A DNA stretch of 23,475 nucleotides from Promethearchaeota archaeon (GTDB taxonomy: Archaea > Asgardarchaeota > Lokiarchaeia > Sigyniarchaeales > SOKP01): NCBI GenBank assembly GCA_018238625.1, contig JABCSY010000062.1, positions 1 to 23,475 of the forward strand, given 5' to 3'. The notes under the pieces are model-generated. The model did no database searches. It had not been told where the DNA came from and saw nothing but the letters and a program-made list of their open reading frames with translations. The translations under genes and the position numbers were made by a program. Below, piece by piece: positions 7,193 to 23,475 of the stretch. Numbering within the stretch: the stretch's first letter is position 1; each line of letters begins with the position of its first letter.

Positions 7193-8620
7193 TTACTTTG
7201 GATAAATTATATTCCATCCTAGATAGTTAGAAAGAGCTTCAAATACTATTTCACCTACTTTATTTAATGAAGAGGCTACGTGGTGAGCAAAACCTTCTTT
7301 ACATAATGTCTTTAAAACATCTTGTAAATTAGGTATTTCTATCACTCCATAACCTCCAAAAGTTTCTAAAGGGTCATCTGTATAATTTCCTTCCACTAAA
7401 AGGGCTTTAATCTCTCCGAAAACATCGTCAGTTTCAATCCTTAATAATGTACACGGTTTACTTTTAATTCTTCCTTGAATAGCTCCAAAACTATGGTCAT
7501 CGCCTTTAAGATCTGAAATAATGGGGTGAATTGTCATCTTGGTTTCTTCAAAGAATGATTTTGGAAGATTACTGCAGTGAAAAAGAACCATTTTATTAGG
7601 ATCGTCGCCGTAATTATTGTTCCAATCTAAAATTGCCGAAGGCGTTTCGGTTGCAACTTGCAAAATATACATACCAACTAAGCCCGCAATATCTACTTCA
7701 CAAGCTGCGGGTACTAAACCTTCACTGAACATGCTCATGACTGCACAGGGAACGATCCCAAAATTGTCCTGAATGCTTGGCCAACATTGAAAAGCAAAAC
7801 CGTCCAATTCGTTTTCCAATACCCAATTCTCGACGACAACTGCTAGTTTTGCTAATTTTAATATGCCGTCTTCTGGAAATGTTGTAGTTGGTGTATAATC
7901 CTTAATGAGTTGAATTTTTTCCTTTACTTTAGGATCGTCATCTGGTAATCTACTAATTTCTCCAAAAATTTCTGATAAATCAATTGGTTCGATCGTAATC
8001 CCGTGTAATTGTAAAATTTTCTCGCTATATCTCACTGTTTCAAAAGCGTTAGGTCTTACGCCTATTTGCCCAAATCTGGCGTTTTTGAGTTTCTTTACGA
8101 TTTTACAGACTCCTTCAAATTTTATTATATCTGCTTTAAAAGCATCAGAGTTAATAGGACATGTATGCGTCTCGGTTAATGTAAATGGAATTCCGTGCTG
8201 ATATAGAACGCTACAAACGGATAGTTTTCCGCAGAATGCGTCTCGTCTAAATTTTCGATTCATTTTGTCGACTTCATCAGATGAAGCTTGAATAAGGATT
8301 GGAACATTTAAATCAGATAGTTTCAGAGTGTTAGCAAAAGCTTTCTCGTCAGAAAAATTAGGTAAGCACAAAATTATACCCGCTATTGAATCTTTATTAT
8401 CTCGAAATAATTTAGCACATTTTTTTGCGTCGGAATAAGATTCTACTACGCCATCTTTTGTATCGCTCTCGCTTAAAATAACGTAACCAAACCCTAATTC
8501 TTTCAATACACTTATAATTTCTATTCGTCCTTCTTTAGCAAGATGGTCTGGGAAAACATCTCTATTACCGACGATAACTCCAAAATGGGTTTTGGATTCT
8601 TTTTTATTTATAAATGACAT
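7193..8620 (-). CDS. L-fucose/L-arabinose isomerase family protein
   Basis: Characteristic motifs RRDAFCGKLS, GVRPNAFETVRYSE, QCW, ACEVD, LFHCSN and GFAHH. Confidence 0.88.
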   Translation of the reverse strand: MSFINKKESKTHFGVIVGNRDVFPDHLAKEGRIEIISVLKELGFGYVILSESDTKDGVVESYSDAKKCAKLFRDNKDSIAGIILCLPNFSDEKAFANTLKLSDLNVPILIQASSDEVDKMNRKFRRDAFCGKLSVCSVLYQHGIPFTLTETHTCPINSDAFKADIIKFEGVCKIVKKLKNARFGQIGVRPNAFETVRYSEKILQLHGITIEPIDLSEIFGEISRLPDDDPKVKEKIQLIKDYTPTTTFPEDGILKLAKLAVVVENWVLENELDGFAFQCWPSIQDNFGIVPCAVMSMFSEGLVPAACEVDIAGLVGMYILQVATETPSAILDWNNNYGDDPNKMVLFHCSNLPKSFFEETKMTIHPIISDLKGDDHSFGAIQGRIKSKPCTLLRIETDDVFGEIKALLVEGNYTDDPLETFGGYGVIEIPNLQDVLKTLCKEGFAHHVASSLNKVGEIVFEALSNYLGWNIIYPK

Positions 8621-8774: not shown

Positions 8775-9194
8775 TTATAATTTTAAATAACCATTTAAAA
8801 ATTCTTGGAACTTAGTTTTAACTTCTATAGAAATATGATGTTCCATTTCACACGACAACTCCTTAATGAGTTTGATATCTTTAATTTTTAAAACTTTTTT
8901 GAAAAAGATTTCCAATATAGCTTTTGTTTCACTTAAATGCTGAGCAATTAGTTTTCCTTCTTTAGTTAGTCTAATTGGACTTCTCGGTTTCCATACTATT
9001 AAATTATTCTCTTTTAGTTTATATAAAATTCCACTTACGCTTGCTGGATTAACATTTAATTTTTCTGCAATTTCTTTGTTATTAACCCACGCTCCTTTTT
9101 TAGTGAGAGAAATTGCATAGATTTCGCATAGATACCTCTGGTATGTTTCTGGTACATCATATATCGAGAGGTTAGCTTTATTCTTGTTGTTCAT
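8775..9194 (-). CDS. DtxR/MntR-family transcriptional regulator (wHTH plus dimerisation domain, no FeoA/SH3 domain)
   Basis: HTH VNNKEIAEKLNVNPASVSGILYKL, wing IRLTKEGK, and SCEMEHH in the dimerisation domain. Confidence 0.88.
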   Translation of the reverse strand: MNNKNKANLSIYDVPETYQRYLCEIYAISLTKKGAWVNNKEIAEKLNVNPASVSGILYKLKENNLIVWKPRSPIRLTKEGKLIAQHLSETKAILEIFFKKVLKIKDIKLIKELSCEMEHHISIEVKTKFQEFLNGYLKL

Positions 9195-9218
9195 AATAAT
9201 AAGTTTTTTTTTAAAAAT

Positions 9219-9228
9219 AAAAAAAAAA
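9219..9228 (-). terminator. Oligo-T (T10 on minus strand) terminator of the feoAB operon
   Basis: A10 run on the + strand directly beyond the stop of ORF 9231..9713. Confidence 0.45.
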
Positions 9229-9230
9229 GT

Positions 9231-9713
9231 TTATTTTAAATAATTATCTCTATTTTTCCACAATAACATTATGTAAATCGACCCGATTCCAAGAAAGATT
9301 TCTGTTCGTATGCCTTCTGTAAAGATAAAGTCTTCCCATACAGTAATATCTACGAGACCTTGCAGAGCAAAATCGACCAAATTAGCAATCCATTCAATAG
9401 CAAATAAAGTTCCGATTCCCAAAGCTAAAATTCCTGCTCCAATTAAAAACCCAAATCCAGAGAGAGTTCCTTGTTTTATTTGTGGAACGCCATAAAGGAA
9501 TATCACGGCAATTAATAAATTAATTAACGCTTTAGCTAAATGATCTAGAAATGAACTCTCCCATATTGCATCACCTGGCGAAGAAAATAGGAAAATTAAT
9601 GGTTCTTCTAATGGTATGTGTATAAATTCTACTATTGAAACAATTAAGAAGGCAACTCCGAATAATAATGCTACAATACTAAAAGAAGATCGTTTTAATT
9701 CTATGATTTCCAT
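9231..9713 (-). CDS. Feo-associated membrane protein of unknown function (about 4 TM helices)
   Basis: 160-aa hydrophobic ORF whose ATG (9713) directly abuts the feoB stop (9714-9716). Confidence 0.8.
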   Translation of the reverse strand: MEIIELKRSSFSIVALLFGVAFLIVSIVEFIHIPLEEPLIFLFSSPGDAIWESSFLDHLAKALINLLIAVIFLYGVPQIKQGTLSGFGFLIGAGILALGIGTLFAIEWIANLVDFALQGLVDITVWEDFIFTEGIRTEIFLGIGSIYIMLLWKNRDNYLK

Positions 9714-11759
9714 TTAGAAATAGACACCTCCAATTAAATTGATTATCAACGCTAAAATGTAACCTAAACCTATACCATAAGTAGCAGAAACTAAAGCCCA
9801 TTTTTTTGAGCCGGTTTCTTTATATACAGCACCTATATGAGCAACACATGGAGTATACAGCAAAACAAATACAAGATATCCGTATACTAATGCAGGCATG
9901 GCAGCAACAGCAACAGCACCGGGTACTGCTAAATTATCGAATACAAATTGACCCAATCCTGCTGGTTCTTCTTCACCGGTTAAAATCAATCCAAACGCTG
10001 CTACAACAACTTCTTTAGCTAAAAATCCAAAAACAATTCCGATAGCAGCAATCCAGCTCCATTTTAGTGGTGCAAATAAAGGTTGAAAGAACTTTCCAAC
10101 TCCAGCAAGCAAGGAGTATTCAGGATCAACGCCCCATGCTAATGTCCCTGTATTAGGATCAATTCCAAAACTTTGGAGAAGCCACATAATAACGACAACA
10201 GCAAAAATTATCGTTCCTGCTTTCTTAATAAATTCTCTTCCTCGTTCCCACATGTGAATTCCAGTGTATTTTGCTGTAGGCATGCGATAATCCCCTAATT
10301 CTAATATAAATGGAGATGTTTCACCTTTAAAAACTACTTTACGGAAAAATAACGCTAGCAATATTGCAATGACGATTCCAAGAGCATATAAACTAAATAT
10401 TATTGTACCAGTTGAGGCGTTTCCTAATACATATCCTCCTAATAAAACATAAACAGGTAATCTTGCGCCACAAGAAATATTTTGATTAACCATAATTGTA
10501 GTTAAACGATCTTGTTCGTTTTCTATAGCCCTACAAGACATAACTGCGGGAATATTACATCCAAACCCCAACATCATTGAAACAAAAGACCTTCCGTGTA
10601 GACCGAGTTTATACATTAAACGATCCATGTTAAAAGCAGCTCGAGCCAAGTATCCAGAGTCTTCTAGAAAAGATAAGACCAAAAACATCGTAAATATTAA
10701 AGGTACGAATCCTAAAACGGCCCCAAAACCTCCAAATATCGCTTCATTTATGAAAGATTTTATGAAAGCTATCCACCAAATGTCTTCAGGTATACCAGAG
10801 GTTAGCAATGGAAGCCATTCTTCAAATATTAATCCAACTAGAGTTATCATTGGAGCTGATGCCCTAAAAGTGATTTCAAACATCCCCCACATTATCAACA
10901 AAAAGATCGGAATTCCGAAATATTTGTTTAAAAAGACTCTATCTAATATATCTGAAGATGTGACCACTCCTTTTTCTCGCTTGTATGTTTCTTTAATAAT
11001 TTCTCCGATTTTATTATATCTCTCACCCGCTAAATCGAATTCTTCAGTACCAGATAAAATCCGCTTCATTTTTTCCTCGACAACTATTCCTCCATCAAAA
11101 GTATACAATTCTTTTTTAACTTCTTTATCGTTTTCAATGAGTTTTATTGCAGCCCATCTTCTTTTATCAGAAAGGAATTTAGGAAGATTATTTTCAAGGA
11201 TTTCTGTAGCTTTTTTTATTTTCTCCTCTAACTCGCTAGAATAATGAATAATTTCAACGCTTTTTCTTGCTAATTTATTATCTTTAACATAGCTTTCGAT
11301 TGTATTTCTTGCTTCTTTTATGCCTTTACTTTTGATTGCTACTGTTGGTATAACAGGAGCTCCCATTAACTGTGATAATCGCTCAACATCAATGTTAATT
11401 TTTCTTTTTTCTGCTGCATCCATCAAATTTAATATAAAAATCACCGGGATTCCTAGTTCTTTCAATAAAAATGCTAGATAAAGATTTCTTTCTAAATTCG
11501 TTGCGTCTAAGATATCGACAATTAAATCAGGTTTTTCATTTACAATAAAATTTCTGGCAATCATCTCATCAATAGCAGCCGGAGATAAAGAATAGACACC
11601 TGGAAGATCGATTACTTCAATATTTCCCATTTTACCTGTTTTCTTTTCCACAGTAACTCCAGGCCAGTTTGCAACATGACCAGTTTCTCCAGTTAATTCG
11701 TTAAAAAACACTGTTTTTCCAACATTTGGATTTCCAATTAACGCTAAACTTTTAGACAT
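9714..11759 (-). CDS. feoB: Ferrous iron transporter B
   Basis: G1 GNPNVGKT, G2 NWPGVTV, G3 DLPG, G4 NLMD. Membrane motifs LEDSGYLAR, GFGCNIPA and YTPCVA. The start is placed at MSKS (11759) because a GAGGT SD lies about 10 nt upstream and the 11795 start would overlap feoA. Confidence 0.97.
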   Translation of the reverse strand: MSKSLALIGNPNVGKTVFFNELTGETGHVANWPGVTVEKKTGKMGNIEVIDLPGVYSLSPAAIDEMIARNFIVNEKPDLIVDILDATNLERNLYLAFLLKELGIPVIFILNLMDAAEKRKINIDVERLSQLMGAPVIPTVAIKSKGIKEARNTIESYVKDNKLARKSVEIIHYSSELEEKIKKATEILENNLPKFLSDKRRWAAIKLIENDKEVKKELYTFDGGIVVEEKMKRILSGTEEFDLAGERYNKIGEIIKETYKREKGVVTSSDILDRVFLNKYFGIPIFLLIMWGMFEITFRASAPMITLVGLIFEEWLPLLTSGIPEDIWWIAFIKSFINEAIFGGFGAVLGFVPLIFTMFLVLSFLEDSGYLARAAFNMDRLMYKLGLHGRSFVSMMLGFGCNIPAVMSCRAIENEQDRLTTIMVNQNISCGARLPVYVLLGGYVLGNASTGTIIFSLYALGIVIAILLALFFRKVVFKGETSPFILELGDYRMPTAKYTGIHMWERGREFIKKAGTIIFAVVVIMWLLQSFGIDPNTGTLAWGVDPEYSLLAGVGKFFQPLFAPLKWSWIAAIGIVFGFLAKEVVVAAFGLILTGEEEPAGLGQFVFDNLAVPGAVAVAAMPALVYGYLVFVLLYTPCVAHIGAVYKETGSKKWALVSATYGIGLGYILALIINLIGGVYF

Positions 11760-11775
11760 TTTTTTCTTTACCTCA

Positions 11776-11994
11776 TTAAAGTATTTCAACCTCAATTAAT
11801 TTACATTCGGATTTCCGTAGACTAAGATTGTAGTTTTTGATTTCTAATTCTAAAGGATCTCCTAAAGGCGAAGCTCGAATTACTTGTATTAATTCACCTG
11901 GAAGTACTCCCATTTTACCAACAATACTGCCTATTGATTTTTCAACAGAAATAATTCTAGCTTTTGTGTTAAATGGTAAGTCAGTTAAATTCAT
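11776..11994 (-). CDS. feoA: Ferrous iron transport protein A
   Basis: 72 aa with the SH3-like FeoA signature MGVLPG...SPLGDPLE...LSLRKSE, directly upstream of feoB. Confidence 0.95.
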   Translation of the reverse strand: MNLTDLPFNTKARIISVEKSIGSIVGKMGVLPGELIQVIRASPLGDPLELEIKNYNLSLRKSECKLIEVEIL

Positions 11995-12035
11995 TTAATT
12001 CAGACCTTACATTTTTCTTTTTTTTTTTTTATAAA

Positions 12036-12049
12036 TTAGGTATGCCTAA
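12036..12049. promoter_or_regulatory. DtxR/SirR-type operator TTAGG-TATG-CCTAA upstream of feoA
   Basis: Palindrome with perfect 5-bp arms, matching the TTAGG-N4-CCTAA core known for DtxR-family (SirR/MntR) boxes. Two DtxR-family genes are in the locus. Confidence 0.8.
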
Positions 12050-12082
12050 AAAGGCAAATTATAGTTACAAAAGAAACTATTG

Positions 12083-12100
12083 TTTTTAAATCTTATCTTT
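12083..12100 (-). promoter_or_regulatory. Putative BRE/TATA of the feoAB operon
   Basis: The minus strand reads AAAGATAAGA-TTTAAAAA, about 35 nt upstream of operator 1. Confidence 0.45.
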
Positions 12101-12183
12101 GAATTGCAGTAATTATTTGTAGATCTTTAATTTAACTTTCAGATTATAGATTTAAATTTATAATTTGGTCATAGATTGAATAC

Positions 12184-12196
12184 AAAAGATTTATAT
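12184..12196 (+). promoter_or_regulatory. Putative BRE/TATA of the feoC-like/dtxR operon
   Basis: AAAAGA-TTTATAT lies about 16 nt upstream of operator 2, so the predicted transcription start falls inside the operator. Confidence 0.5.
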
Positions 12197-12211
12197 CTAT
12201 TCAAAGAGTTT

Positions 12212-12235
12212 ATAATTTAGGTATAACTAAATTAT
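12212..12235. promoter_or_regulatory. Second DtxR-type operator ATAATTTAG-GTATAA-CTAAATTAT
   Basis: 24-bp palindrome with one mismatched pair. Its core TTAGGTATAACTAA matches operator 1 at 12 of 14 positions. Confidence 0.8.
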
Positions 12236-12259
12236 TTTAAAAACAAAAGAAAATATGAA

Positions 12260-12562
12260 ATGAATAAAATTAACTCAAATTTATACATTAAAGTCATTCG
12301 GAAGATCATAGAAAAGGGTGTGTCTAGTCCTCATTTTATTGCTCAATCTTTAGAGATATCTGAAGAATTATTAAATGTGGTAATACATTCACTATTAGAA
12401 AAGGGATATTTAAACTACATCGATGATAAAGAGTTTAAAAAGGAAGCGTCGTTACATTGTAAGTTTTGCCCTTATGCTAAAGATTGTTCTGAAAATCTAC
12501 CTTCTGTTTTTTATGAACTATCGGAAAAAGGAAAAAATATCACAAAAAATTATAATAATTAA
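12260..12562 (+). CDS. FeoC-like winged-helix protein with a Cys cluster
   Basis: HTH IAQSLEISEELLNVVIHSLLEKGYL, a CKFCPYAKDC insert in the wing, then YELSEKG. Located in the feo locus. Confidence 0.8.
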   Translation: MNKINSNLYIKVIRKIIEKGVSSPHFIAQSLEISEELLNVVIHSLLEKGYLNYIDDKEFKKEASLHCKFCPYAKDCSENLPSVFYELSEKGKNITKNYNN

Positions 12563-12581
12563 AACAAGGATTTTACAAAAT

Positions 12582-13265
12582 ATGCCAAAATTAAGCAACA
12601 AAAGAAATAGAAGAAGGTTTAATAGAAGAGAAAAAGAAATGAATTATCATCTTAACTTAAATAAAAATAATAGTTACCATTATAAACATGAAAATTTTAA
12701 GGAATTAGAAGAAGATCTACTGAAAGTTATTTATAAAGGAAAAGATCATAAGGTATCAAATAAATATTTAACCGAATTCTTCAATAAAAGAAATGTACCA
12801 TCTCATAGAATTATAAAACATTTACATAGAAATGCTTTTTTACATTTTTATAATAATTCTGTTTCTCTTACTCCAAATGGGATATTAATTGCTAAAGAAA
12901 TACAGAAAAGGCATAATAAGATAGAGAATTTTATAAAAGGAAAAGGAATGGTCTGTGATGCTCATGAGATGGCTCATATCCTTGAACATGAGCTCACTAC
13001 AGAAACCATTCAAAAAATTATAAAAGCATCAGAATTAAAAGAGAAAGGAAGACCTTTAATTAACTTTTTATTACCATTTGGGACAATTGTTGGTTTAGAT
13101 TTGCCTAATTGTAAAGTCTGGACGAAATTGATAAGTATTGGGATATTTCCAGGTCAAAAAATCCATATTATTGAGAGAAATTCAACTAATTTTCTAATTG
13201 AAGTAAAAAATAGTAGAGTAGCTATAGATAAAATCCTAGCAAACGGTATACTCTTAATTCCTTGA
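12582..13265 (+). CDS. DtxR-family metal-dependent regulator with C-terminal FeoA/SH3 domain (divergent N-terminus)
   Basis: LTPNG...KRHNKIE...AHILEH, and FeoA-like LISIGIFPGQKI...RVAID. The start is probably ATG 12582 (AAGGA upstream) or 12639, not 12423. Confidence 0.82.
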   Translation: MPKLSNKRNRRRFNRREKEMNYHLNLNKNNSYHYKHENFKELEEDLLKVIYKGKDHKVSNKYLTEFFNKRNVPSHRIIKHLHRNAFLHFYNNSVSLTPNGILIAKEIQKRHNKIENFIKGKGMVCDAHEMAHILEHELTTETIQKIIKASELKEKGRPLINFLLPFGTIVGLDLPNCKVWTKLISIGIFPGQKIHIIERNSTNFLIEVKNSRVAIDKILANGILLIP

Positions 13266-14361: not shown

Positions 14362-15651
14362 ATGATTTTTGTTAGCTTACTAATTAGTGTAAAAAGAATG
14401 TTTAATAGATTTTGGGAAGAGAAAATATTCCGAATCGCTATTTTACTTCATTTATTTTATTACCTTTTATCAATAATCTTGTTTTTTACGGTTCTTTCCG
14501 AAAAGAACGATTTTTTAATATTTTACGAATCAGGCAAGATTTTCCTCAATGACATTAACAATCTTTATAATCAAACGTATTATCTTTGGGATTTTCGATA
14601 CTTTCCTTTATCGGCACTATTCTTTGTTCCTTTTTCACTTATAGATTTTAGATTAGCGTTTGTATTGTTTAATACGCTAAATTTATTTTTGAATTTTCTA
14701 ATTATCATGCTTTTATATAAGATAATTAAAAGAGTTCGCGGAAAAGACCACGAACAAAACGATAAAAGAATAATACTCTATATCAGTATATATTTAATGG
14801 GAGTGCCTCACGTTTTAAACTACATCTACGGGCAGATCAATTTGTTTATCACTTTGTTTATTTTAATTTCCTTGATAATTTTTCTTACCTATAAAAGCAA
14901 TGTTTGGCAGTTTATCGGGAGCTTTATCTTAGGTGTTAGTATTATAATTAAACCAACATCGATCTTCCTTATCCCTTTCTTGTTAATATTACATTTTGAC
15001 TTAGAAAAAAGAAAGCTTAAAATCGACTTTTCTAAAAGTTTTATAAGAATTTTTGGTGTAATATTACCTGTTTTGTCTAATTTCGTTCTATTTGCCGCTT
15101 TTCCTAAATTATGGGAAGACTTTTTGGAAACTAACTTTACCGGAAGCAATCCTATTGCTTTAAATTTTTCTTACAGTTTAACAAAACTCATTACTAACTT
15201 CTGTTATCTTTATAATATTCCATTTAGTCAATTAACGATACTTCTTGTCTCAGTTGGGTTTTTTGGGGGTATTGGATTTATTATTTTCGTTTCAATAAGG
15301 AGAAAACAAAATTCTATCTTATATGGTTATACATTTGGTATTTTAATTATGCTTCTTACGTATTTTGATTCTTGGGACCATCATCTCTTAAACTTGACGC
15401 CTCTTTTGATAATTATTATCTTTAATCTCCCGAGAAAGACTGAGTTGTTGAATTACATAAAACCTAGTCTATTCTTCTTCAATTTTTTTGATATCCTATT
15501 TGTTGGAATTTGGTATTTGACGTATCCTCTATTTCCCTATAATTTTGTTGGCACATTTTTTCTAATCTTAGCACTTTTCGGAGTTATAAAATACTGTTTA
15601 GTTAAAAATAAAAAATCAAAAAATGTTGAGGTTGGTATCCATGAAGGTTAG
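14362..15651 (+). CDS. GT87/DUF2029-like polyprenol-phosphate-sugar glycosyltransferase (GT-C), paralog 1
   Basis: NDFLIFY after TM1, FRYFPL, GQIN, IIKP and DSWDHH motifs, about 10 TM helices. Alternative start at 14398. Confidence 0.8.
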   Translation: MIFVSLLISVKRMFNRFWEEKIFRIAILLHLFYYLLSIILFFTVLSEKNDFLIFYESGKIFLNDINNLYNQTYYLWDFRYFPLSALFFVPFSLIDFRLAFVLFNTLNLFLNFLIIMLLYKIIKRVRGKDHEQNDKRIILYISIYLMGVPHVLNYIYGQINLFITLFILISLIIFLTYKSNVWQFIGSFILGVSIIIKPTSIFLIPFLLILHFDLEKRKLKIDFSKSFIRIFGVILPVLSNFVLFAAFPKLWEDFLETNFTGSNPIALNFSYSLTKLITNFCYLYNIPFSQLTILLVSVGFFGGIGFIIFVSIRRKQNSILYGYTFGILIMLLTYFDSWDHHLLNLTPLLIIIIFNLPRKTELLNYIKPSLFFFNFFDILFVGIWYLTYPLFPYNFVGTFFLILALFGVIKYCLVKNKKSKNVEVGIHEG

Positions 15652-16363
15652 AAGAACAAATCTTTTTGCAAGTACCGCTCTTATTTTAATTTTTATGGGG
15701 AGTTTCACATCAAACGTAATTGCTTTAGATTATAGTATTGGTTTTAGAGCAGGCGATCAATTATTTTGGAAATGCAATATATGTAATATTAACAAAATGA
15801 ACGTGCTTTTTGGGGAGGGTTGGAGAGACGCGGGATTGTTTGAAAACCTAAGCCAAGGAAAAAGGATGAGATGGGACATTAATACAATCGAACAAAATTC
15901 CACAACAATATTAGCATCAGTTAATGTATGGATGTGGCAAAATGAAGGGAGTTGGGGAACTCTTGACAATATATCAGAATCTTCATATTTAAAAGATCCA
16001 AGCCAATATCCCGCCAATTTTAATTTTTCAAATTATTTGCCTTTTGTACCTTTCTGGTTACCCGTTCCGATTGGCGATTATTTAGGGGAAATGAAACTGA
16101 GTGATTTGTACGACGTTGATAATCGCGTTTTACCAACTTTAAATGTTCAACCTAATATTCCCACTGAAAATGTTTATATAATTGCGGTCTATAACCTAAA
16201 TGGGATTTTAAGCTCTTTTAAATTATATACAACCGGTAATGTAGTCGTCATTGATATTTCACTTGATAACATCCCTCTATATGTATTACCTTCCACAATA
16301 GGTTTAATTAGTGCATTTTTAATTGTTATTTATTTATATGTAAAGAGAAAACGAAATATATAA
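15641..16363 (+). CDS. Secreted, membrane-anchored surface protein
   Basis: Signal peptide MKVRRTNLFASTALILIF...VIA, a beta-rich body, and a C-terminal IPLY + TM helix + KRKR. GAGGT SD before ATG 15641. Confidence 0.8.
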   Translation: MKVRRTNLFASTALILIFMGSFTSNVIALDYSIGFRAGDQLFWKCNICNINKMNVLFGEGWRDAGLFENLSQGKRMRWDINTIEQNSTTILASVNVWMWQNEGSWGTLDNISESSYLKDPSQYPANFNFSNYLPFVPFWLPVPIGDYLGEMKLSDLYDVDNRVLPTLNVQPNIPTENVYIIAVYNLNGILSSFKLYTTGNVVVIDISLDNIPLYVLPSTIGLISAFLIVIYLYVKRKRNI

Positions 16364-16391
16364 CCTTTTATTACAATTTATTTAAATTGAC

Positions 16392-17705
16392 ATGGATTTT
16401 AAAGCGTGTTTTACCCAAGTTAAGAATCGTTCTGTAGAACTATGGAAATTTAAATTCTTCAGATATTGTATATTTCTTCACATGTTTTATTTTATATTTT
16501 CAATACTTATGACATTGTTCGTATTCAGAGAGCAAAGTGATTTCTACGTATATTATAGAGTTGGAGAAATTTTTGTTAACGATCCTGCTAACCTTTACAA
16601 CCCTGCAAATTATGCCGACATTTGGCCTTTTAGGTATCTCCCTCTTTCTGCGCTACTCTTTGTTCCTTTTTATCTAATGGGTTTTGAATTAGGTTTTATT
16701 GTTTTTAATTTAATCAATTTAATTTTAAACGTTTTAATCTCTATAATTCTTTATAAATTAATACTCTTGATTAGAAGAGAAGATCACGAGAAAGAAGAAA
16801 ATAGAGTAATACTGTACATTTGTCTTTACCTTATTGGATTACCGCAGGTATTTAATTACATATTAGGTCAAATTAATTTATATGTTACTCTACTTATTTT
16901 ATTATCTCTGTTTATTTTTCTTAAATATAACGATATCAAATGGCAATTTCTCGCAAGTTTTCTATTAGGAATAAGTATTATAATTAAACCAACGACTATA
17001 TTTATGATTCCCTTCCTAATTATGCTCAATTACGACTATAATAATAAAAAATTAAAACTTGATTTTACTAAAAGCTTTCTTAGATTAATTGGCGTTGTAT
17101 TGCCTTTGTCTCTAAACTTTATAATGTTTTTAATTTACCCGAGTTTATTAAGTGGGTTTTTAGAAACTAATTTTACAGGTTCTGAAACAGTGCTTTTAAA
17201 CCATTCTTTTAGCATTACAAAACTCATATCTAATTTCTTCTTATATATTGGGGTTCCCGCTACCGAATTAAGCGTTTTACCTATTTTTTTAAGCGTTTTG
17301 CTCATTTTGGGAAGCATAAGTTTAATTCTCTATGTATTTAGAAGATTTTACATAAACAGTTTAATTTACGGATACACTTTCGGTATTTTAATAATGTTCC
17401 TTGCTTACTTTGACTCATGGGACCATCATCTTCTCAATTTAACGCCGCTTTTAGTTGTTATATTGTTTAATTTGCCAAGAAACTCAGAATTAACCAGAAA
17501 GTATATTAAACCGGGCTTTTTCTTTTTGAGCTTCTTTGATTTGGTTTTTATGGGAATATTTTGGCTAACAAAACTGTTTTTTACTGATATGTTTTTTCCA
17601 TTTAATTTCGCTTCAACAATATTTTTAATTCTTATTTTTGTAGGGATTGGTCATTATTGCTTACAAAAGGAAAATAACGAAAAATCATATAAGGTAAAAG
17701 CTTAA
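16392..17705 (+). CDS. GT87/DUF2029-like glycosyltransferase (GT-C), paralog 2
   Basis: SDFYVYY, FRYLPL, GQIN, IIKP and DSWDHH motifs. Collinear with paralog 1, with long identical blocks (ETNFTGS, YFDSWDHHLLNLTPLL). Confidence 0.8.
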   Translation: MDFKACFTQVKNRSVELWKFKFFRYCIFLHMFYFIFSILMTLFVFREQSDFYVYYRVGEIFVNDPANLYNPANYADIWPFRYLPLSALLFVPFYLMGFELGFIVFNLINLILNVLISIILYKLILLIRREDHEKEENRVILYICLYLIGLPQVFNYILGQINLYVTLLILLSLFIFLKYNDIKWQFLASFLLGISIIIKPTTIFMIPFLIMLNYDYNNKKLKLDFTKSFLRLIGVVLPLSLNFIMFLIYPSLLSGFLETNFTGSETVLLNHSFSITKLISNFFLYIGVPATELSVLPIFLSVLLILGSISLILYVFRRFYINSLIYGYTFGILIMFLAYFDSWDHHLLNLTPLLVVILFNLPRNSELTRKYIKPGFFFLSFFDLVFMGIFWLTKLFFTDMFFPFNFASTIFLILIFVGIGHYCLQKENNEKSYKVKA

Positions 17706-17779: not shown

Positions 17780-18484
17780 ATGGTCCAAGAATATTTTATT
17801 ATACTAATGCCAGCATTTTTATTGGGAATATTACACACACTCATTCCCTGCGAAGATAAAGCAATTTTCTTTTTTTGGTCGTTTGGAATAGCAAAGACGC
17901 CAAAAAAGAGTATTTATATCTTAATGCTTTATGGATTGGGATTGATTACTTCTAATATGATTATTGCATCAGTTACGGTTTTTATCACCCAAGTCCCAAG
18001 ATTTATTATACCCAGTTTTACACCAGACCCTGTAGTTATTAATTTCTTTGGAGCGTTTACATCTATGTTTGCGGGGATATTTTTTTTATTCTTCATTACA
18101 AGACGGGACTACTTGCCTCATTCTAAATATTTTAAGGACATTCCAAATTTAGATTGGGAATCAAAGAAAACGCCTTATGTTTTTGGAATCATAGCAGGAT
18201 TTGCTCCTTGTATATTTGAATTAATGATGTATTCTCAAGCTTTTCAATTATCTCTTGGATATGGATTCATAGAAGGTCTATTAGTAGTATTTTATTTCTC
18301 TGTAGGCACTTTTGTGGGATTGTTTCCACTTGCTTTAGCTAAACAAGGTACTTCGCTTATAGTTAAGCCAAAAGAAAGCAGAAAGAACACAATTTATTAC
18401 ATTATGCTACTAATAATTATAATTTTTAATACAACGGTTATGGTACTATCGCTTTTAGGAGTTTCTGTATTTCCAATCTTATAA
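17780..18484 (+). CDS. Six-TM membrane protein of the CcdA/DsbD_2/NicO(UreH, RcnA)-like superfamily
   Basis: GILHTLIPCEDK in TM1, GIIAGFAPC in TM4, and FSVGT in TM5. Confidence 0.65.
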   Translation: MVQEYFIILMPAFLLGILHTLIPCEDKAIFFFWSFGIAKTPKKSIYILMLYGLGLITSNMIIASVTVFITQVPRFIIPSFTPDPVVINFFGAFTSMFAGIFFLFFITRRDYLPHSKYFKDIPNLDWESKKTPYVFGIIAGFAPCIFELMMYSQAFQLSLGYGFIEGLLVVFYFSVGTFVGLFPLALAKQGTSLIVKPKESRKNTIYYIMLLIIIIFNTTVMVLSLLGVSVFPIL

Positions 18485-18699: not shown

Positions 18700-21069
18700 A
18701 TGGAATGCAAATTCTGCGAAAGTCAAAACATTTCTTTTACCTGTGAGAAATGCAAGTCAAGTTTTTGCATCCATCATATGGCTACAACGGAAAGCTGGCT
18801 CTGTAAAAAGCATGGAATACACTATTCAAAAGCAAGCGCCGCTGAAAAGTTTTATAAATGTACCGTTATTGAAAATAGTACGTGCCCTGAGTGCGAAGCG
18901 CTTTTAAGGTTAGAGAGACTGTCGTCTGGTCAATATTATTTAGAGTGCACGGATGAAACTTGTGCCTGGAACTCCTATTTAAAATCCCCCGGCTTATTTT
19001 TTCCTACTAAAGAACAATTAGCAAGAGAAGCAACTAAGTATAATTTAATTAAAGGATATCGGTTAAATTTATGTCGTAGGTCTTTAAAAAGGATAATCGG
19101 AAAAGAAGTTTGTCCTAATTGCTTTTTAGAATTTTTAAAGAGAGCACCAATCGCTAACTTCTCTACGATTATAGAGTCTTTTAATATATCCGCCCAACAA
19201 ATGATAAAATTAATTAATCGATACATCGACGAAGAGCGAATATATGGCATAATTGATCAGAAGGACCAAATGTTTTATTACATTTCGTACGAGATGAGAG
19301 AAAAAATTCTTTCAAAAATACAAAATAAGGGTATTTTGAAAGTAGCTGATTTAGCCGCCATGCTTGACATGAGTTCTGAAATAGCCATTAAAGTCATATA
19401 TAAATTAATAAGTCAATTTCAGATAAAAGGTTCATTCTCACAAACTAAGCATTTTTATTACACTCAAAAACATATTATGGATAATTTAATCAAAGAAATA
19501 AATAAAAAGGGAAGGATTTCGTTAGATAAGCTTGCGAAAGTTTTCGATATTCCAAAGGAACTATCAAAATCATTTTGCGTCAATTTAATGAGAACTAATG
19601 CCGTTACCGCGTTTTTTGCTGATCGTGGCAACGAAATTATTACATCTGATAGAATTTATAAAGAAATTAAAGATTTTTCTAAAGAAAACGGATTGTTTGA
19701 ACTAAATAAGCTTGCAAAAAAGTTAAAGATCGCAGTAGAACTCGCGAGGAAATCGCTCCACGACCTTATCAAATCGGGTTCGGTAAAAGGAATTTTCACT
19801 CAAAGAAGAGAATTTATGACGCGAAAATACCTTGAGGATAAAATAAAAGAACTAGCAAGAGCATATAGAACTATGCCTTTGAGAGAATTATCGAATCGAT
19901 TGGGGGTAACTGAATCCAGTATAGAAGAAAATCTAGCTCAATTAATTGGGAGGGGCGACATTGATGGTTACATTGACATGCATAAGAGAATTTTTATGGC
20001 TTATAGCGTCCCTCGAACACAAACAGGATCAACTCGCACGAAACAGAAAAAACCACAATCAATTGACGGGGGTAAAATTGAGGTTGTAAGGGATTACGAT
20101 TTTGAAGGTGGACAGTTACATTTCAAAGTAGCCGTTAGAAATAAGAGCAGTATGGCGATTAATAACGTTAAAGTTCTATTGGACGCACCCTCAAGTTATA
20201 AGATAAAACAACCATTAATTAATATACCTGTTATTGAAGCTAATAATAGTAGGGGAGTTGATTTTTATCTTGAACCAAAACAATGCGGAACATCGTCGAT
20301 CGGGGGTGATGTTATCTATAAGGACGCCCAAGGCACCAAGCACACTTTATATATCAAAAAAAGAGATGTAGAAATCAAATGTCCCTTAGTTTGCACTTCT
20401 ATGAGTACAATAGAGGATTGTCAAGTCGCAATACAAACTTTAGGAAACGACGCACGAGCGTTTTTAATCGCCGACTTAGATCCGCGATTAGCTTTTAGAG
20501 GAGCAATAAGAACTCTAAAAAACTTTGACACCAGCGCTGTTACTTCCCATGAAGGTTCAGATGCTAAAGGAAATTACGAAGGAGAGGCGTGGTTTTGTTC
20601 GGAAGCAAAAAATACTGGAGGGAGAATTATAACGAGAATTTACGTTTCCGAGATGAGTCAATCGTTAGAAGTAAGAGTCTGGTGTGGAAACCCAGGACAG
20701 CTTACAGGATTTTTAGCAAAAATTATCGAAATTCTCTTTGAGGAAATTAATATCATTCGGAAGATTAAGTCCGAAGAAAGGGAGAAAACCATTGATATTA
20801 TGGCAATCACTCAAAACTTAGCAGAAGTTAGCGATTATTGTATGCTAAGATGGAAAGCGCAGAATATAAGAAATAAACTACACGATACTTTTATTCGATT
20901 ACGTAAAGTAATAGGAGAAAAAGAAGCGATCTTAGGTAGAATTGAGTTTTGGTTGACACAGTTGAATAAGTACGGCAAAGACGATAAAATTAGCGATGAG
21001 GACGCCGATAAACTGGTGAACGATGTTGAAAAATTCAAAAACATTATTGCTCGAGCCATAAAATTGTGA
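18700..21069 (+). CDS. Multidomain protein: zinc fingers, five tandem winged-helix (PCI/DDRGK1/UFL1-like) repeats, adaptin-appendage-like Ig and platform domains, helical tail
   Basis: 789-aa ORF with GGAG SD. It has 16 candidate Cys/His ligands in aa 3-141, ~60-aa repeats in aa 141-436, a beta sandwich in aa 459-560 and an alpha/beta domain in aa 565-680. Domain calls are by motif recognition. Confidence 0.75.
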   Translation: MECKFCESQNISFTCEKCKSSFCIHHMATTESWLCKKHGIHYSKASAAEKFYKCTVIENSTCPECEALLRLERLSSGQYYLECTDETCAWNSYLKSPGLFFPTKEQLAREATKYNLIKGYRLNLCRRSLKRIIGKEVCPNCFLEFLKRAPIANFSTIIESFNISAQQMIKLINRYIDEERIYGIIDQKDQMFYYISYEMREKILSKIQNKGILKVADLAAMLDMSSEIAIKVIYKLISQFQIKGSFSQTKHFYYTQKHIMDNLIKEINKKGRISLDKLAKVFDIPKELSKSFCVNLMRTNAVTAFFADRGNEIITSDRIYKEIKDFSKENGLFELNKLAKKLKIAVELARKSLHDLIKSGSVKGIFTQRREFMTRKYLEDKIKELARAYRTMPLRELSNRLGVTESSIEENLAQLIGRGDIDGYIDMHKRIFMAYSVPRTQTGSTRTKQKKPQSIDGGKIEVVRDYDFEGGQLHFKVAVRNKSSMAINNVKVLLDAPSSYKIKQPLINIPVIEANNSRGVDFYLEPKQCGTSSIGGDVIYKDAQGTKHTLYIKKRDVEIKCPLVCTSMSTIEDCQVAIQTLGNDARAFLIADLDPRLAFRGAIRTLKNFDTSAVTSHEGSDAKGNYEGEAWFCSEAKNTGGRIITRIYVSEMSQSLEVRVWCGNPGQLTGFLAKIIEILFEEINIIRKIKSEEREKTIDIMAITQNLAEVSDYCMLRWKAQNIRNKLHDTFIRLRKVIGEKEAILGRIEFWLTQLNKYGKDDKISDEDADKLVNDVEKFKNIIARAIKL
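19120..20007 (+). repeat. Five protein-level winged-helix repeats of about 60 aa (180 nt)
   Basis: GILKVADLA (aa 211), GRISLDKLA (271), GLFELNKLA (331) and RTMPLRELS (390). Wings IYGIID (181), IKGSFS (242), VTAFFA (302), VKGIFT (362) and IDGYID (421). Confidence 0.8.
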
Positions 21070-21155: not shown

Positions 21156-21581
21156 ATGCCAATAATTTCATTCTCAATTAATGAAAACCTAAAGCAATTT
21201 ATTAATAAACTAGTATCGAAAAATCAATACGAAAACAAATCTAAATTAATAAGAGATGCCTTATTAAGGCTAATGTCAGATATAGAGTTCTCAAATTTAG
21301 AGTCACAGGGAGAATCTTACGGAGAAACAATTCCAACTACTAAAAGAATTATTGGAAATATGATAATTGTAACTCCTCACGATCCAAATATTCAGAGAAA
21401 ATTAAATAAGATTGAGAGTAGATATAACGAGCAAATAGTAAATAAGAATCAACACTTTCAAGGAGAAAATCTAATAATTTTTATGATTTTTGAAGGAACT
21501 GTACATGATTTTCAAAGTATTGTAGTTGATGTAAATGGAATTGAAGAAATTAAGAATTTCCGTTATTTGATTATAAATTAG
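21156..21581 (+). CDS. NikR-like ribbon-helix-helix regulator with an ACT-like C-terminal domain
   Basis: MPIISFSINENL...YENKSKLIRDAL is an RHH signature, followed by IIGNMIIV...IFMIFEG. Most canonical Ni ligands are absent. Confidence 0.8.
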   Translation: MPIISFSINENLKQFINKLVSKNQYENKSKLIRDALLRLMSDIEFSNLESQGESYGETIPTTKRIIGNMIIVTPHDPNIQRKLNKIESRYNEQIVNKNQHFQGENLIIFMIFEGTVHDFQSIVVDVNGIEEIKNFRYLIIN

Positions 21582-21766: not shown

Positions 21767-23475
21767 ATGATTGAAAAAGAAGACAATATATACCGAAAGC
21801 TACAACAGCAATTAGATACTTTACCCATAGGCTTTCCTGCGACGAAATCAGGCGTAGAAATTCGATTGTTAAAATTTTTCTTTACTCTTGAAGAAGCAGA
21901 AATTGCTATTAACATGCGATTTATACCCGAATCTGTGAAAAAGATTTATCGTAGGGTTAAAAAAATAGTAAAATCCGTAGAAGAACTTAAGCACATTTTA
22001 GACAGAATGTATCATAAAGGTGCTATCAATCTAAAGAGAGAGATGGACGAAAATGGGGAAGAGATACTATATCACCTCGCCTTTTTAGCAGTAGGCATGT
22101 ATGAATATCAAGTAAAGTCGATTACAAAAGAATTTTATGAAGATATCGAGCTATACTTTGAAGAGGAATACCGAGATGAAATCGTAAGCACTAAAATCAA
22201 CCAATTACGAACTATTCCAGTTGAAGAAAGCATCACGCCAGAACACAATATTGCCACATACGACGAACTAAAAACAATAATTAAAAATACAGAGAAGATC
22301 GCTATAATGGATTGCATATGCCAAAAAGGGAAAGATCTAATCGGCGAATCGTGTAAACAGACGAATATACGCGAGCACTGCTTCGCTCTAAATAATTCTG
22401 CTCAACATGTCGTAGATATAAATAACGGAAGATTTATAACTAAGGATGACGCTTTAAACACACTTAAAAAAGCGCAAGAAGAAGGCTTAATTCTTCAACC
22501 TGGAAACGCTCAAGATCCGAATTTCATTTGTTGTTGTTGTGGATGTTGTTGCGATCTTATAACAAATTTAAAGAAACTTGAACGCCCTTGGGAAATGTTT
22601 TATTCTAATTATTACGCTACTGTTGATTCAGGCTCATGTATCGGCTGTGAAACCTGTTTAAATCGGTGTCAAATGGATGCTATTTCGATGGTCGAAGGTT
22701 TAGCCGTTGTTGAGCAAAAATTATGTATCGGGTGTGGTAATTGCGTAACAACTTGCCCAGAACAAGCAATAACGCTCGTAAGGAAAGATAAGGAGATGAT
22801 ACCTCCCAATACTACAACAGATTTATACTTAAAAATAATGGATAAAAAAGATAGAATAATACTAAGTTTGACACATGATAACCAAGAAATATCTCAAGAA
22901 GAAATCGCTAAAAAAATCCATCTATCCCAACCTTCCGTTGCTATACGTATCAAAAAACTCAAGGAGCGAGGATTTATTGATCGTATTATTGGTGTGAATC
23001 TAAATAAAGTTGGATTAAGCGTAGCGATGGTACAAGTAACGTCTACCAATACCGCCAGAGTTTTGAATGTGCTCCGTGATTGCCCGTTTTTCTTAAATGG
23101 ATTTGTTATATCAGGAAAAGAAAATTTAGTTCTTAAAAGACAAATGCAAGATACTCATAATGAAATGGTTCAAGCACAGATCAAACAGGCTTCTCTAGTG
23201 AAGTCTATGAGGGACGCATGGGTTTCTGCCATATCAGCTATGAATACTGGAATGGGTGGTTTTACAGAAATTATAATGAATGCTGAGACAAATACCGCTC
23301 AAATTCAGCAGTTAGATGGTGCGGTTAGATCATCTGTTAGTGGAGCGTATTCTGCTAGAGATGCTTTTGGAAGAGTTATAGAAGATGTTGGTTTTGCAGG
23401 TTCTGAAGTTATGAATCAGTTTGGAGATATAGTAGGCAGAGGAGGCAGGCAACTTTATGAAACAGCCTATACAAC
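21767..23475 (+). CDS. 4Fe-4S dicluster protein (21767 to ~22849), continuing in frame into an Lrp/AsnC fragment and an unrelated segment; 3'-partial, no stop in the window
   Basis: Translated by hand: MIEKEDNIYRKLQQQLDTLPIGFPATKSGVE...CICQ...ICCCCGCCC...CIGCETCLNRCQ...CIGCGNCVTTCP...PPNTTTDLYLKIMDKK, then open for 569 codons to the window end. Probably absent from the ORF track because it has no stop. Confidence 0.85.
   Translation, partial: MIEKEDNIYRKLQQQLDTLPIGFPATKSGVEIRLLKFFFTLEEAEIAINMRFIPESVKKIYRRVKKIVKSVEELKHILDRMYHKGAINLKREMDENGEEILYHLAFLAVGMYEYQVKSITKEFYEDIELYFEEEYRDEIVSTKINQLRTIPVEESITPEHNIATYDELKTIIKNTEKIAIMDCICQKGKDLIGESCKQTNIREHCFALNNSAQHVVDINNGRFITKDDALNTLKKAQEEGLILQPGNAQDPNFICCCCGCCCDLITNLKKLERPWEMFYSNYYATVDSGSCIGCETCLNRCQMDAISMVEGLAVVEQKLCIGCGNCVTTCPEQAITLVRKDKEMIPPNTTTDLYLKIMDKKDRIILSLTHDNQEISQEEIAKKIHLSQPSVAIRIKKLKERGFIDRIIGVNLNKVGLSVAMVQVTSTNTARVLNVLRDCPFFLNGFVISGKENLVLKRQMQDTHNEMVQAQIKQASLVKSMRDAWVSAISAMNTGMGGFTEIIMNAETNTAQIQQLDGAVRSSVSGAYSARDAFGRVIEDVGFAGSEVMNQFGDIVGRGGRQLYETAYT
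22838..23134 (+). other. Lrp/AsnC-family regulator segment, C-terminally truncated, embedded in frame in the terminal ORF
   Basis: MDKKDRIILSLTHDNQEISQEEIAKKIHLSQPSVAIRIKKLKERGFI is an Lrp HTH, followed by VNLNKVGL...CPFFLNGFVISGKENL. The RAM domain breaks off after the SG turn. Confidence 0.8.

Follow-up and report, generated by a model that had tools for sequence, protein, structure and literature searches.

In the vesicle traffic of eukaryotes, the ears of adaptins, COPI and the BBSome act as hubs, and for that reason the occurrence of coat ears in Asgard archaea bears on the origin of the endomembrane system. The locus studied here raises the question of whether a lokiarchaeial gene encodes such an ear and, if so, what machinery the protein might serve. 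The DNA that we analyzed (hereafter “the window”) comprises 23,475 nucleotides (nt) of contig JABCSY010000062.1 from assembly GCA_018238625.1 of a Promethearchaeota archaeon (Lokiarchaeia, Sigyniarchaeales, SOKP01); its G+C content is low, at 24-38%. Positions 20074-21066 correspond to codons 459-789 of a single open reading frame (ORF) on the plus strand, 18700-21069, which has 789 codons plus a stop and no internal stops. The feature is the C-terminal 42% of this ORF and not a separate gene.

We found that this portion of the protein is predicted to fold as a two-part coat ear, joined by one continuous helix to a bundle resembling the C-terminal domain of Vps28. Judged from the translation and its homologs, the whole gene encodes zinc ribbons, a winged-helix array, a hinge, the ear (sandwich plus platform) and the Vps28-C-like bundle. 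We propose that the product is an adaptor linked to the endosomal sorting machinery ESCRT, and we assign this statement as a whole, structure and role together, a probability of about 0.55. The structural description, along with the identity of the protein with a class already in print, is very likely correct.

Predicted structure of the C-terminal region

A prior sequence-only reading of the window had recognized an immunoglobulin (Ig) strand pattern at residues 459-560, had placed an adaptin-type platform and a helical hairpin after it, and had taken the whole for a prokaryotic coat-appendage homolog. An alignment of residues 441-789 with 81 relatives (82 members, hereafter “the alignment”) was the basis of an AlphaFold2 prediction of this region. 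The mean predicted local distance difference test (pLDDT) score of the model is 94.0, and its predicted template-modeling score is 0.70. The pLDDT is at least 90 in 304 of the 349 residues and falls to 56-76 over the first 20, which include the linker (residues 441-458).

This linker is a short, hypervariable hinge (20020-20073, plus strand, as are all parts of the gene). It is followed by an Ig-like beta sandwich of the adaptin-ear/GAE/TRAP-beta type (residues 459-562; 20074-20385), whose eight strands occupy residues 460-559 of the model, just where the strand pattern had been noticed. The sandwich leads directly into an alpha/beta platform of the TATA-binding-protein (TBP)-like or helix-grip type (residues 563-694; 20386-20781), in which residues 564-662 form a short strand, a helix, a strand, a helix and then a four-strand meander. 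The last helix of the platform continues unbroken: a single 51-residue helix (residues 665-715) connects the platform (residues 564-690 in the model) to a four-helix bundle (residues 695-789; 20782-21066), which is completed by helices at 720-738, 743-755 and 766-788. Both parts of an ear, an N-terminal beta sandwich and a contiguous C-terminal TBP-like alpha/beta platform, are thus present in the model.

Fold comparisons point to coat appendages. A Foldseek search of the Protein Data Bank (PDB) returned 54 matches at E≤1e-3, of which coat appendages fill ranks 1-13 (232-251 aligned columns, 10-13% identity). The COPI leaf 9qpq_H (4.1e-10) and the AP-2 beta2 ears 1e42_A (5.5e-10) and 2iv9_A (5.2e-9) are at the top, and gamma-COP (1pzd, 1r4x and 5a1u_E) and AP-2 alpha ears are also among these ranks; BBS9 (6vbu_9) follows at rank 14 (1.1e-6). 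The VIA search, which is independent of Foldseek and covered 48,161 chains, gave as its top rows (with model positions counted from residue 441) the AP-2 beta2 ear 3h1z_A (score 13.6 over 201 residues, positions 14-241), the AP-2 alpha ear 1w80_A (13.5 over 206, positions 11-239), the platform-only AP-4 beta4 ear 2mj7 (13.4 over 117, positions 123-249, with a root-mean-square deviation (rmsd) of 2.7 Å) and the yeast Vps28 C-terminal domain 2j9u_A (13.1 over 93 of 94 residues, positions 255-347, rmsd 2.0 Å, 16% identity).

The sequence-only reading therefore fares well for the ear. The platform follows the Ig part as had been supposed, coat ears lead both searches, and the comparison with coat appendages that had been recommended puts AP-2, AP-4 and COPI ears at the top. 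Its helical hairpin, by contrast, must give way to the four-helix, Vps28-C-like bundle. As to BBS2, BBS7 and BBS9, to whose domain order it pointed, the protein lacks their beta-propeller and ends in helices of the Vps28-C type. The observation of an ear-like back half is confirmed at the level of the predicted structure; the reading as a whole is partly supported, being right in its core and wrong on the tail.

Sequence evidence and conservation

At the level of sequence, the ear is weakly supported and the bundle adequately. The Alpha_adaptinC2 model matches the ORF product at E 0.074 (13.8 bits against a cut-off of 27.6), a score that leaves the protein outside the Pfam ear family, and GAE_BBS1 is likewise sub-threshold (E 0.042, residues 474-512). 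Among the 82 members of the alignment, matches at E≤0.1 were found to Alpha_adaptinC2 in 17 (best 9.3e-4), to GAE_BBS1 in 16 (best 4.9e-3) and to DUF11 in 10. Platform families are absent both from the four Pfam matches of the protein and from the 25 families listed for the alignment. The VPS28 model matches residues 690-781 at 1.5e-5 (25.3 bits, cut-off 24.5) through its positions 88-182 of 188. The gene is the best VPS28 match genome-wide (27.6 bits), an ortholog of 45% identity reaches 36.7 bits, and 10 of the 82 members match at E≤0.1 (best 8.5e-7).

Searches of all PDB chains with the protein (phmmer) and with the alignment profile (hmmsearch) found no adaptin, COPI, BBS or Vps28 chains; what they matched was limited to winged-helix proteins, a single glycosidase Ig domain and arrestins at E≥0.002. 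In the phmmer search the back half of the protein was without any match. Language-model look-alikes of residues 455-690 are headed by an archaeal cluster (0.94), behind which come ear clusters of adaptin, AP-3 and COPI alone (0.80-0.85), values that count as leads only by the tool's own rating. The proposal of a prokaryotic coat-appendage homolog stands as to its core, an ear fold recognized by structure, and falls short in the Pfam ear families.

These results must be weighed against the possibility that the coat-ear likeness is a matter of convergence or of a generic fold, namely a CARDB/DUF11/TRAP-beta-type Ig domain next to a helix-grip domain, with no ancestry in common with the adaptin, COPI or BBS ears. 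We consider this improbable.

A further match concerns the platform and bundle together. NCBIfam model NF045535 (Sel_Asgard) aligns its positions 2-194 of 195 with residues 592-787 at 35.3 bits (E 1e-8), against a cut-off of 132. We did not retain the family's label (“putative selenocysteine system protein”), given the 35 bits versus 132 and an ORF without an in-frame stop. Residues 592-787 are best described, on this profile match, as a homolog of that family's domain and not as a member. The match (20473-21060) also hints at a family whose members, small and stand-alone, each combine half a platform with a Vps28-C-like bundle. One candidate for a stand-alone platform-Vps28-C gene, a 285-residue ORF at the end of contig C11 of genome G065 (L034:3354-4211, minus strand), was rejected: its N-terminus is transporter-like, and only the part that follows matches the ortholog, over the last ~198 residues at 88% identity. 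It has the same downstream genes and lies at a contig end, and G065, which belongs to the same genus, also has a full-length copy; the ORF is probably an assembly or strain artefact.

The ear carries a distinctive set of conserved residues. N481 and P526 are invariant in the alignment (82/82), followed by C529 (81), P562 (79), C561 (78), K637 (76), and D542 and G471 (74 each). Adaptin ears have a conserved tryptophan at the ligand site of the platform. In the present family, W631 is a tryptophan in 41 of the 82 members and W661 in 31; these two tryptophans are therefore not the best-kept residues, and the best-conserved position of the platform is K637. The region from C529 to P562 lies at 20284-20385. 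C529 and C561 frame a beta hairpin (residues 541-550) that is the most variable among close orthologs (entropy 1.21), and C714 (20839-20841) is kept in 75% of distant members. These cysteines may be joined in a disulfide, may bind a metal or may just be buried.

Mean column entropy, calculated for each part from 88 near-full-length orthologs, is 0.77 bits for both the zinc-ribbon and the winged-helix parts, 2.48 for the linker, 0.61 for the sandwich, 0.57 for the platform, 0.31 for the connecting helix and 0.56 for the bundle, with the lowest value (0.12) at residues 711-720. The ear, rod and bundle (0.31-0.61) are thus better conserved than the N-terminal half, and selection is strongest on the rod and the first helix of the bundle. 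It follows from this pattern that the layout of scaffold, variable hinge and conserved ear resembles the trunk-hinge-ear plan in miniature. The 18-residue linker that separates the ear from the winged-helix array is rich in Lys, Thr and Gln and is a short counterpart of the adaptin hinge.

Relation to known proteins

The closest structural parallels are the adaptin and COPI ears (AP-2 beta2 and alpha, AP-4 beta4, and COPI gamma and beta; 1e42, 3h1z, 1w80, 2mj7, 1r4x, 1pzd and 9qpq_H). They share with the present protein a sandwich followed directly by an alpha/beta platform, a flexible linker before the ear, and a location on the C-terminal side of a larger scaffold. They also differ. Identity is 8-13%, with the Pfam ear families below their cut-offs, and the angle between the two domains is not the same (rmsd 6-9 Å over both). 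In the archaeal protein the ear is preceded by zinc ribbons, winged helices and an 18-residue hinge, whereas adaptin ears are tethered by a long hinge, which binds clathrin, to the alpha-solenoid (HEAT) trunk of a heterotetrameric adaptor. In eukaryotes the chain stops at the ear; here a further domain follows. It also has signature residues of its own (N481, P526, C529, D542, C561-P562 and K637).

The bundle is a four-helix structure of the same size as the C-terminal domain of Vps28 in yeast ESCRT-I, over 93 of whose 94 residues (2j9u_A) it superimposes with an rmsd of 2.0 Å. Compared with full Vps28, however, the protein lacks the N-terminal half, which assembles with Vps23 in the ESCRT-I core (profile positions 1-87 are unmatched), and its bundle is fused to the ear by a continuous helix. 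The partner of Vps28-C in yeast is the NZF finger of Vps36, of which there is no known equivalent here. BBS2, BBS7 and BBS9 (6vbu chains 2, 7 and 9) differ in having a beta-propeller, and in place of their helical tail the protein has one like Vps28-C.

Among archaeal proteins, the “Meth_adaptin” proteins (arCOG15284) of Makarova et al. (2024) are likewise credited with an Ig plus TBP ear, a link to ESCRT and, in some cases, zinc ribbons. Those genes are described from Vps4/ESCRT-III neighborhoods of methanogens, with GOLD or transmembrane parts; the gene in the window lies outside the ESCRT locus and adds winged-helix and Vps28-C parts. The N-terminal half has its own relative, the human UFL1-DDRGK1 scaffold (8b9x), with which it shares tandem PCI-like winged helices at significant sequence similarity. 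Here, zinc ribbons replace the UFC1-binding N-terminal helix of UFL1, the C-terminal half is unrelated, and no Pfam match to UFM1 or UFC1 was found in the genome.

The published class

The domain combination itself is already known, having been in print since 2020 and catalogued as an asCOG. The preprint of Liu et al. (2020/2021) describes the fusion of ear and Vps28-C and predicts for it a role in ubiquitin-dependent membrane remodelling. Makarova et al. (2024, mBio, PMC10936438) describe the adaptin appendage as a region of IG plus TBP that recurs across the ESCRT systems of archaea; they propose binding of Vps28-C to ESCRT-II and regard the proteins as functional analogues of ESCRT-0. Supplement file 9 of that paper enters the fusion as cog.003836/003822, flagged as a component of the ESCRT/ubiquitin system. 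Many of the Lokiarchaeota genes listed there are 2370-2373 nt long, and the gene in the window is 2370 nt. Moreover, the window protein is 94% identical over 789 residues to P0006, named in its source as a protein of a Loki_b31 genome, and the supplement lists a 2370-nt cog.003836 gene for a genome of that name. From architecture, length and genome name, we infer membership in this exact asCOG: domain order and gene length are the same, and there is no difference of substance.

The additions made here are modest: the fold statistics for each domain, the signature residues of the family, the hypervariable hinge, the finding that ESCRT synteny is not conserved, and a paralog resembling BBS2, BBS7 and BBS9. 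The gene is a clean and highly conserved example of an ear coupled rigidly to a docking domain of the ESCRT-I type. It is therefore well suited to a first biochemical test of whether, as published work proposes, ESCRT receives cargo from archaeal ears.

Proposed function and alternatives

We propose that the protein is an adaptor analogous to ESCRT-0/ESCRT-I, built as a winged-helix array followed by a variable hinge, the ear, the 51-residue rod and the Vps28-C-type bundle. The bundle would dock on the cell's ESCRT-II, for which the genome has a Vps22/Vps25 locus. The ear may serve as a hub for protein-protein interactions, as adaptin ears do, binding partners through the surfaces of the platform, the sandwich or both, and the zinc ribbons and winged-helix array could hold cargo or a further partner or complex. 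In this way the adaptor would recruit selected proteins to ESCRT and its membrane remodelling, and a canonical ESCRT-I would not take part. Taken alone, this adaptor function is tentative, and we would give it slightly less than an even chance.

Elsewhere in the genome there is a eukaryote-like ESCRT locus with EAP30/Vps22-like, ESCRT-II/Vps25-like, Vps4 and Snf7 genes, the first two at L005:6483-7199 and 7205-8101; a stand-alone Vps28-like gene (a weak match, VPS28 profile positions 3-150) and ubiquitin-like genes are also present. Hatano et al. (2022, Nat Commun, PMC9192718) describe yeast two-hybrid interaction of Lokiarchaeal ESCRT-I (Vps28 and/or Vps23) with Vps22. A complex prediction that paired the bundle (residues 690-789, with alignment) with the genome's Vps22-like protein gave a score of 0.00 and a mark of 0.32, in a run without controls, and it weighs on binding in neither direction.

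The N-terminal half allows another reading. Residues 1-145 (18700-19134) form a Cys-rich region with about three zinc-ribbon-like CxxC motifs, visible as CxxC pairs in the translation; with DZR/Zn_Ribbon_1 matches at the corresponding end of relatives P0127 and P0129, we infer that this region binds zinc. The array that follows (residues ~142-435; 19135-20019) consists of winged-helix repeats of the PCI/UFL1/DDRGK1 type, as recognized from Pfam and PDB sequence matches. The Pfam matches, each above its cut-off, are to PCI (8.7e-23), E3_UFM1_ligase (2.7e-18; 67.1 bits, cut-off 23.2) and DDRGK (3.5e-17; 63.1 bits, cut-off 27.8), and phmmer aligns residues 142-344 with the DDRGK1-UFL1 fusion 8b9x_A (E 5.5e-6). 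The protein might then be an E3 scaffold like UFL1 that serves a pathway of ubiquitin-like modifiers: the array would do the work, as it does in the human UFL1-DDRGK1 ligase, and the ear and bundle would only position it in the cell. Such a role would suit these matches and the ubiquitin-like genes of the genome. On the other hand, neither Pfam Ufm1 nor UFC1 is matched (E≤0.01) in this 97.9%-complete genome, although the UFC1 negative is weak in that the model also missed all 14 control genomes; PCI outscores UFL1 on the same repeats, so that the array may be a generic winged-helix scaffold; and the C-terminal half is the better conserved part of the protein. We regard this alternative as unlikely.

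Least probable is a DNA-binding regulator in which the winged helices contact DNA and the C-terminal module senses or oligomerises, for although some homologs are named “DNA-binding Lrp family transcriptional regulator” at their source, HTH_24 is matched in 22 of the 82 alignment members and archaeal helix-turn-helix (HTH) proteins do carry the module, the repeats match the protein-binding PCI, UFL1 and DDRGK families at E 1e-17 to 1e-23, DNA-binding HTH families reach only E 0.015-0.3, below their cut-offs, and neither a Vps28-C bundle nor an ear has a known role in transcription.

Distribution of the gene and of the ear module

The full-length gene is narrowly distributed. In a sample of 201 genomes of the phylum (the genome under study being excluded from ortholog counts), 45 have a match at E≤1e-10. 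Full-length orthologs, 44-94% identical, occur in 36 of 40 genomes of one family and in 3 of 3 of another, both in a single order, and in no other family of the sample; the gene, which is single-copy, is thus present in 39 of the 43 sampled genomes of its order. Outside these two families, the matches cover only the module of residues ~455-690, embedded in other proteins.

Of 3477 candidates in a word-indexed search with residues 441-789, 321 proteins reached E≤1e-3. The 120 best of these are 74-99% identical over residues 441-789 and mostly 787-791 residues long; those with a named source belong to bins of Lokiarchaeota/Promethearchaeota or other Asgard groups, and “PCI domain-containing protein” is their usual name. 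An exhaustive HMMER search of 1.84 billion cluster representatives matched the same region in 494 (E≤1e-3); 151 of these reach E≤1e-10 and 12 reach E≤1e-30. Most of the distant matches span only query positions ~19-240, that is, the sandwich and platform, and all eight named proteins among ten matches looked up belong to Asgard bins.

A Pfam scan of 40 of the 150 listed matches shows what precedes the module in such distant proteins: an HTH of the HTH_HVO_0163_N type in 8 of the 40 (with or without HTH_24/ArsR-type HTH), PCI in 5 and/or UFL1-type winged helices in 3, FG-GAP repeats with or without Ig arrays in 4, TPR in 1, a Ras-like GTPase in 1 and no known family in 16; one further protein has Big_13 alone.

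Other ear-bearing proteins

A paralog of 609 residues lies outside the window on contig C146 (5622-7478, minus strand; equivalent to L002:4998-6827, minus strand) and matches a hidden Markov model of the ear at E 2.7e-24. In its predicted structure (pLDDT 73.9; the propeller is modeled with confidence, the platform, at 45-84, less so), a beta-propeller would be followed by a disordered linker, a sandwich, a platform and a zinc ribbon. In the PDB, each of the eight folds that match it best belongs to a BBSome subunit, whether BBS9 (4.6e-17), BBS2 (3.1e-16) or BBS7 (chain 6vbu_7, 2.3e-15). Over these eight, E runs from 4.6e-17 to 4.3e-13 and the alignments span 536-708 columns, whereas ordinary WD40 proteins reach ~1e-11. 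In Pfam it has weak matches to BBS2_Mid and Beta-prop_BBS7. Its 75 homologs are all Asgard where named. Literature searches on the BBSome and Asgard archaea (titles and abstract openings) and on Bardet-Biedl and Lokiarchaeota found no paper on a propeller-ear protein of this type, and “BBS” is absent from the text and supplement file 9 of Makarova et al. (2024).

These two proteins raise the possibility, which we nevertheless hold to be doubtful, that the ear is a true homolog of eukaryotic coat ears and that Lokiarchaeia had a diversified ear-bearing set, ESCRT-linked as well as of the BBS2/7/9 type, before eukaryotes. If both share stock with the adaptin, COPI and BBSome ears, the ear module would be older than the proto-coatomer radiation, and its first tie would have been to ESCRT; a propeller-ear protein resembling a proto-BBSome component would perhaps predate that radiation as well.

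Two further proteins are of note. Contig C177 (L003:5037-6035, plus strand) encodes a 332-residue protein with an ear sandwich (Alpha_adaptinC2, E 0.0076), which adjoins a DUF4443 gene and then a Prok-JAB (deubiquitinase-type) gene. Contig C32 (L004:4998-6305, minus strand) encodes a 435-residue SNAP/TPR protein whose Ig domain, of the TRAP_beta/NPCBM_assoc/DUF11 type, is the ear's sandwich.

Genomic neighborhood

The gene is flanked upstream by a DsbD_2-type membrane protein (17780-18484, plus strand) and downstream by a 141-residue protein with ribbon-helix-helix and NikR_C-like parts (21156-21581, plus strand). By tblastn, the former neighbors the gene at 22 and the latter at 20 of 23 ortholog loci of the same family, and both also adjoin an ortholog of 58% identity. 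Neither adjoins two orthologs of 43-45% identity, whose neighbors (histidine kinase, GNAT, purH, transglutaminase-like and acyl-CoA dehydrogenase genes) are unrelated. We read this flanking as inherited synteny and not as a functional operon; no functional clue was found in the gene neighborhood, and ESCRT synteny is not conserved.

Farther downstream, an Fe-S (4Fe-4S dicluster) protein (21767-23473, plus strand) runs past the end of the window. It continues into a winged HTH of the AsnC/MarR type (residues 358-407) and then a tail rich in Gln, Ala, Gly and Ser, whereas its same-genus homolog (L034) ends at 379 residues; the extension may reflect a fusion, read-through or a join made during assembly. 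Upstream, two paralogous GT87 membrane glycosyltransferases of 429 and 437 residues (14362-17705, plus strand) flank a 246-residue protein without a Pfam match, in what looks like a tandem duplication. Finally, positions 8775-13265 hold an iron-uptake cluster with FeoB (693 residues), a DtxR-type repressor (139 residues) and a second protein that combines Fe_dep_repr_C and FeoA domains.

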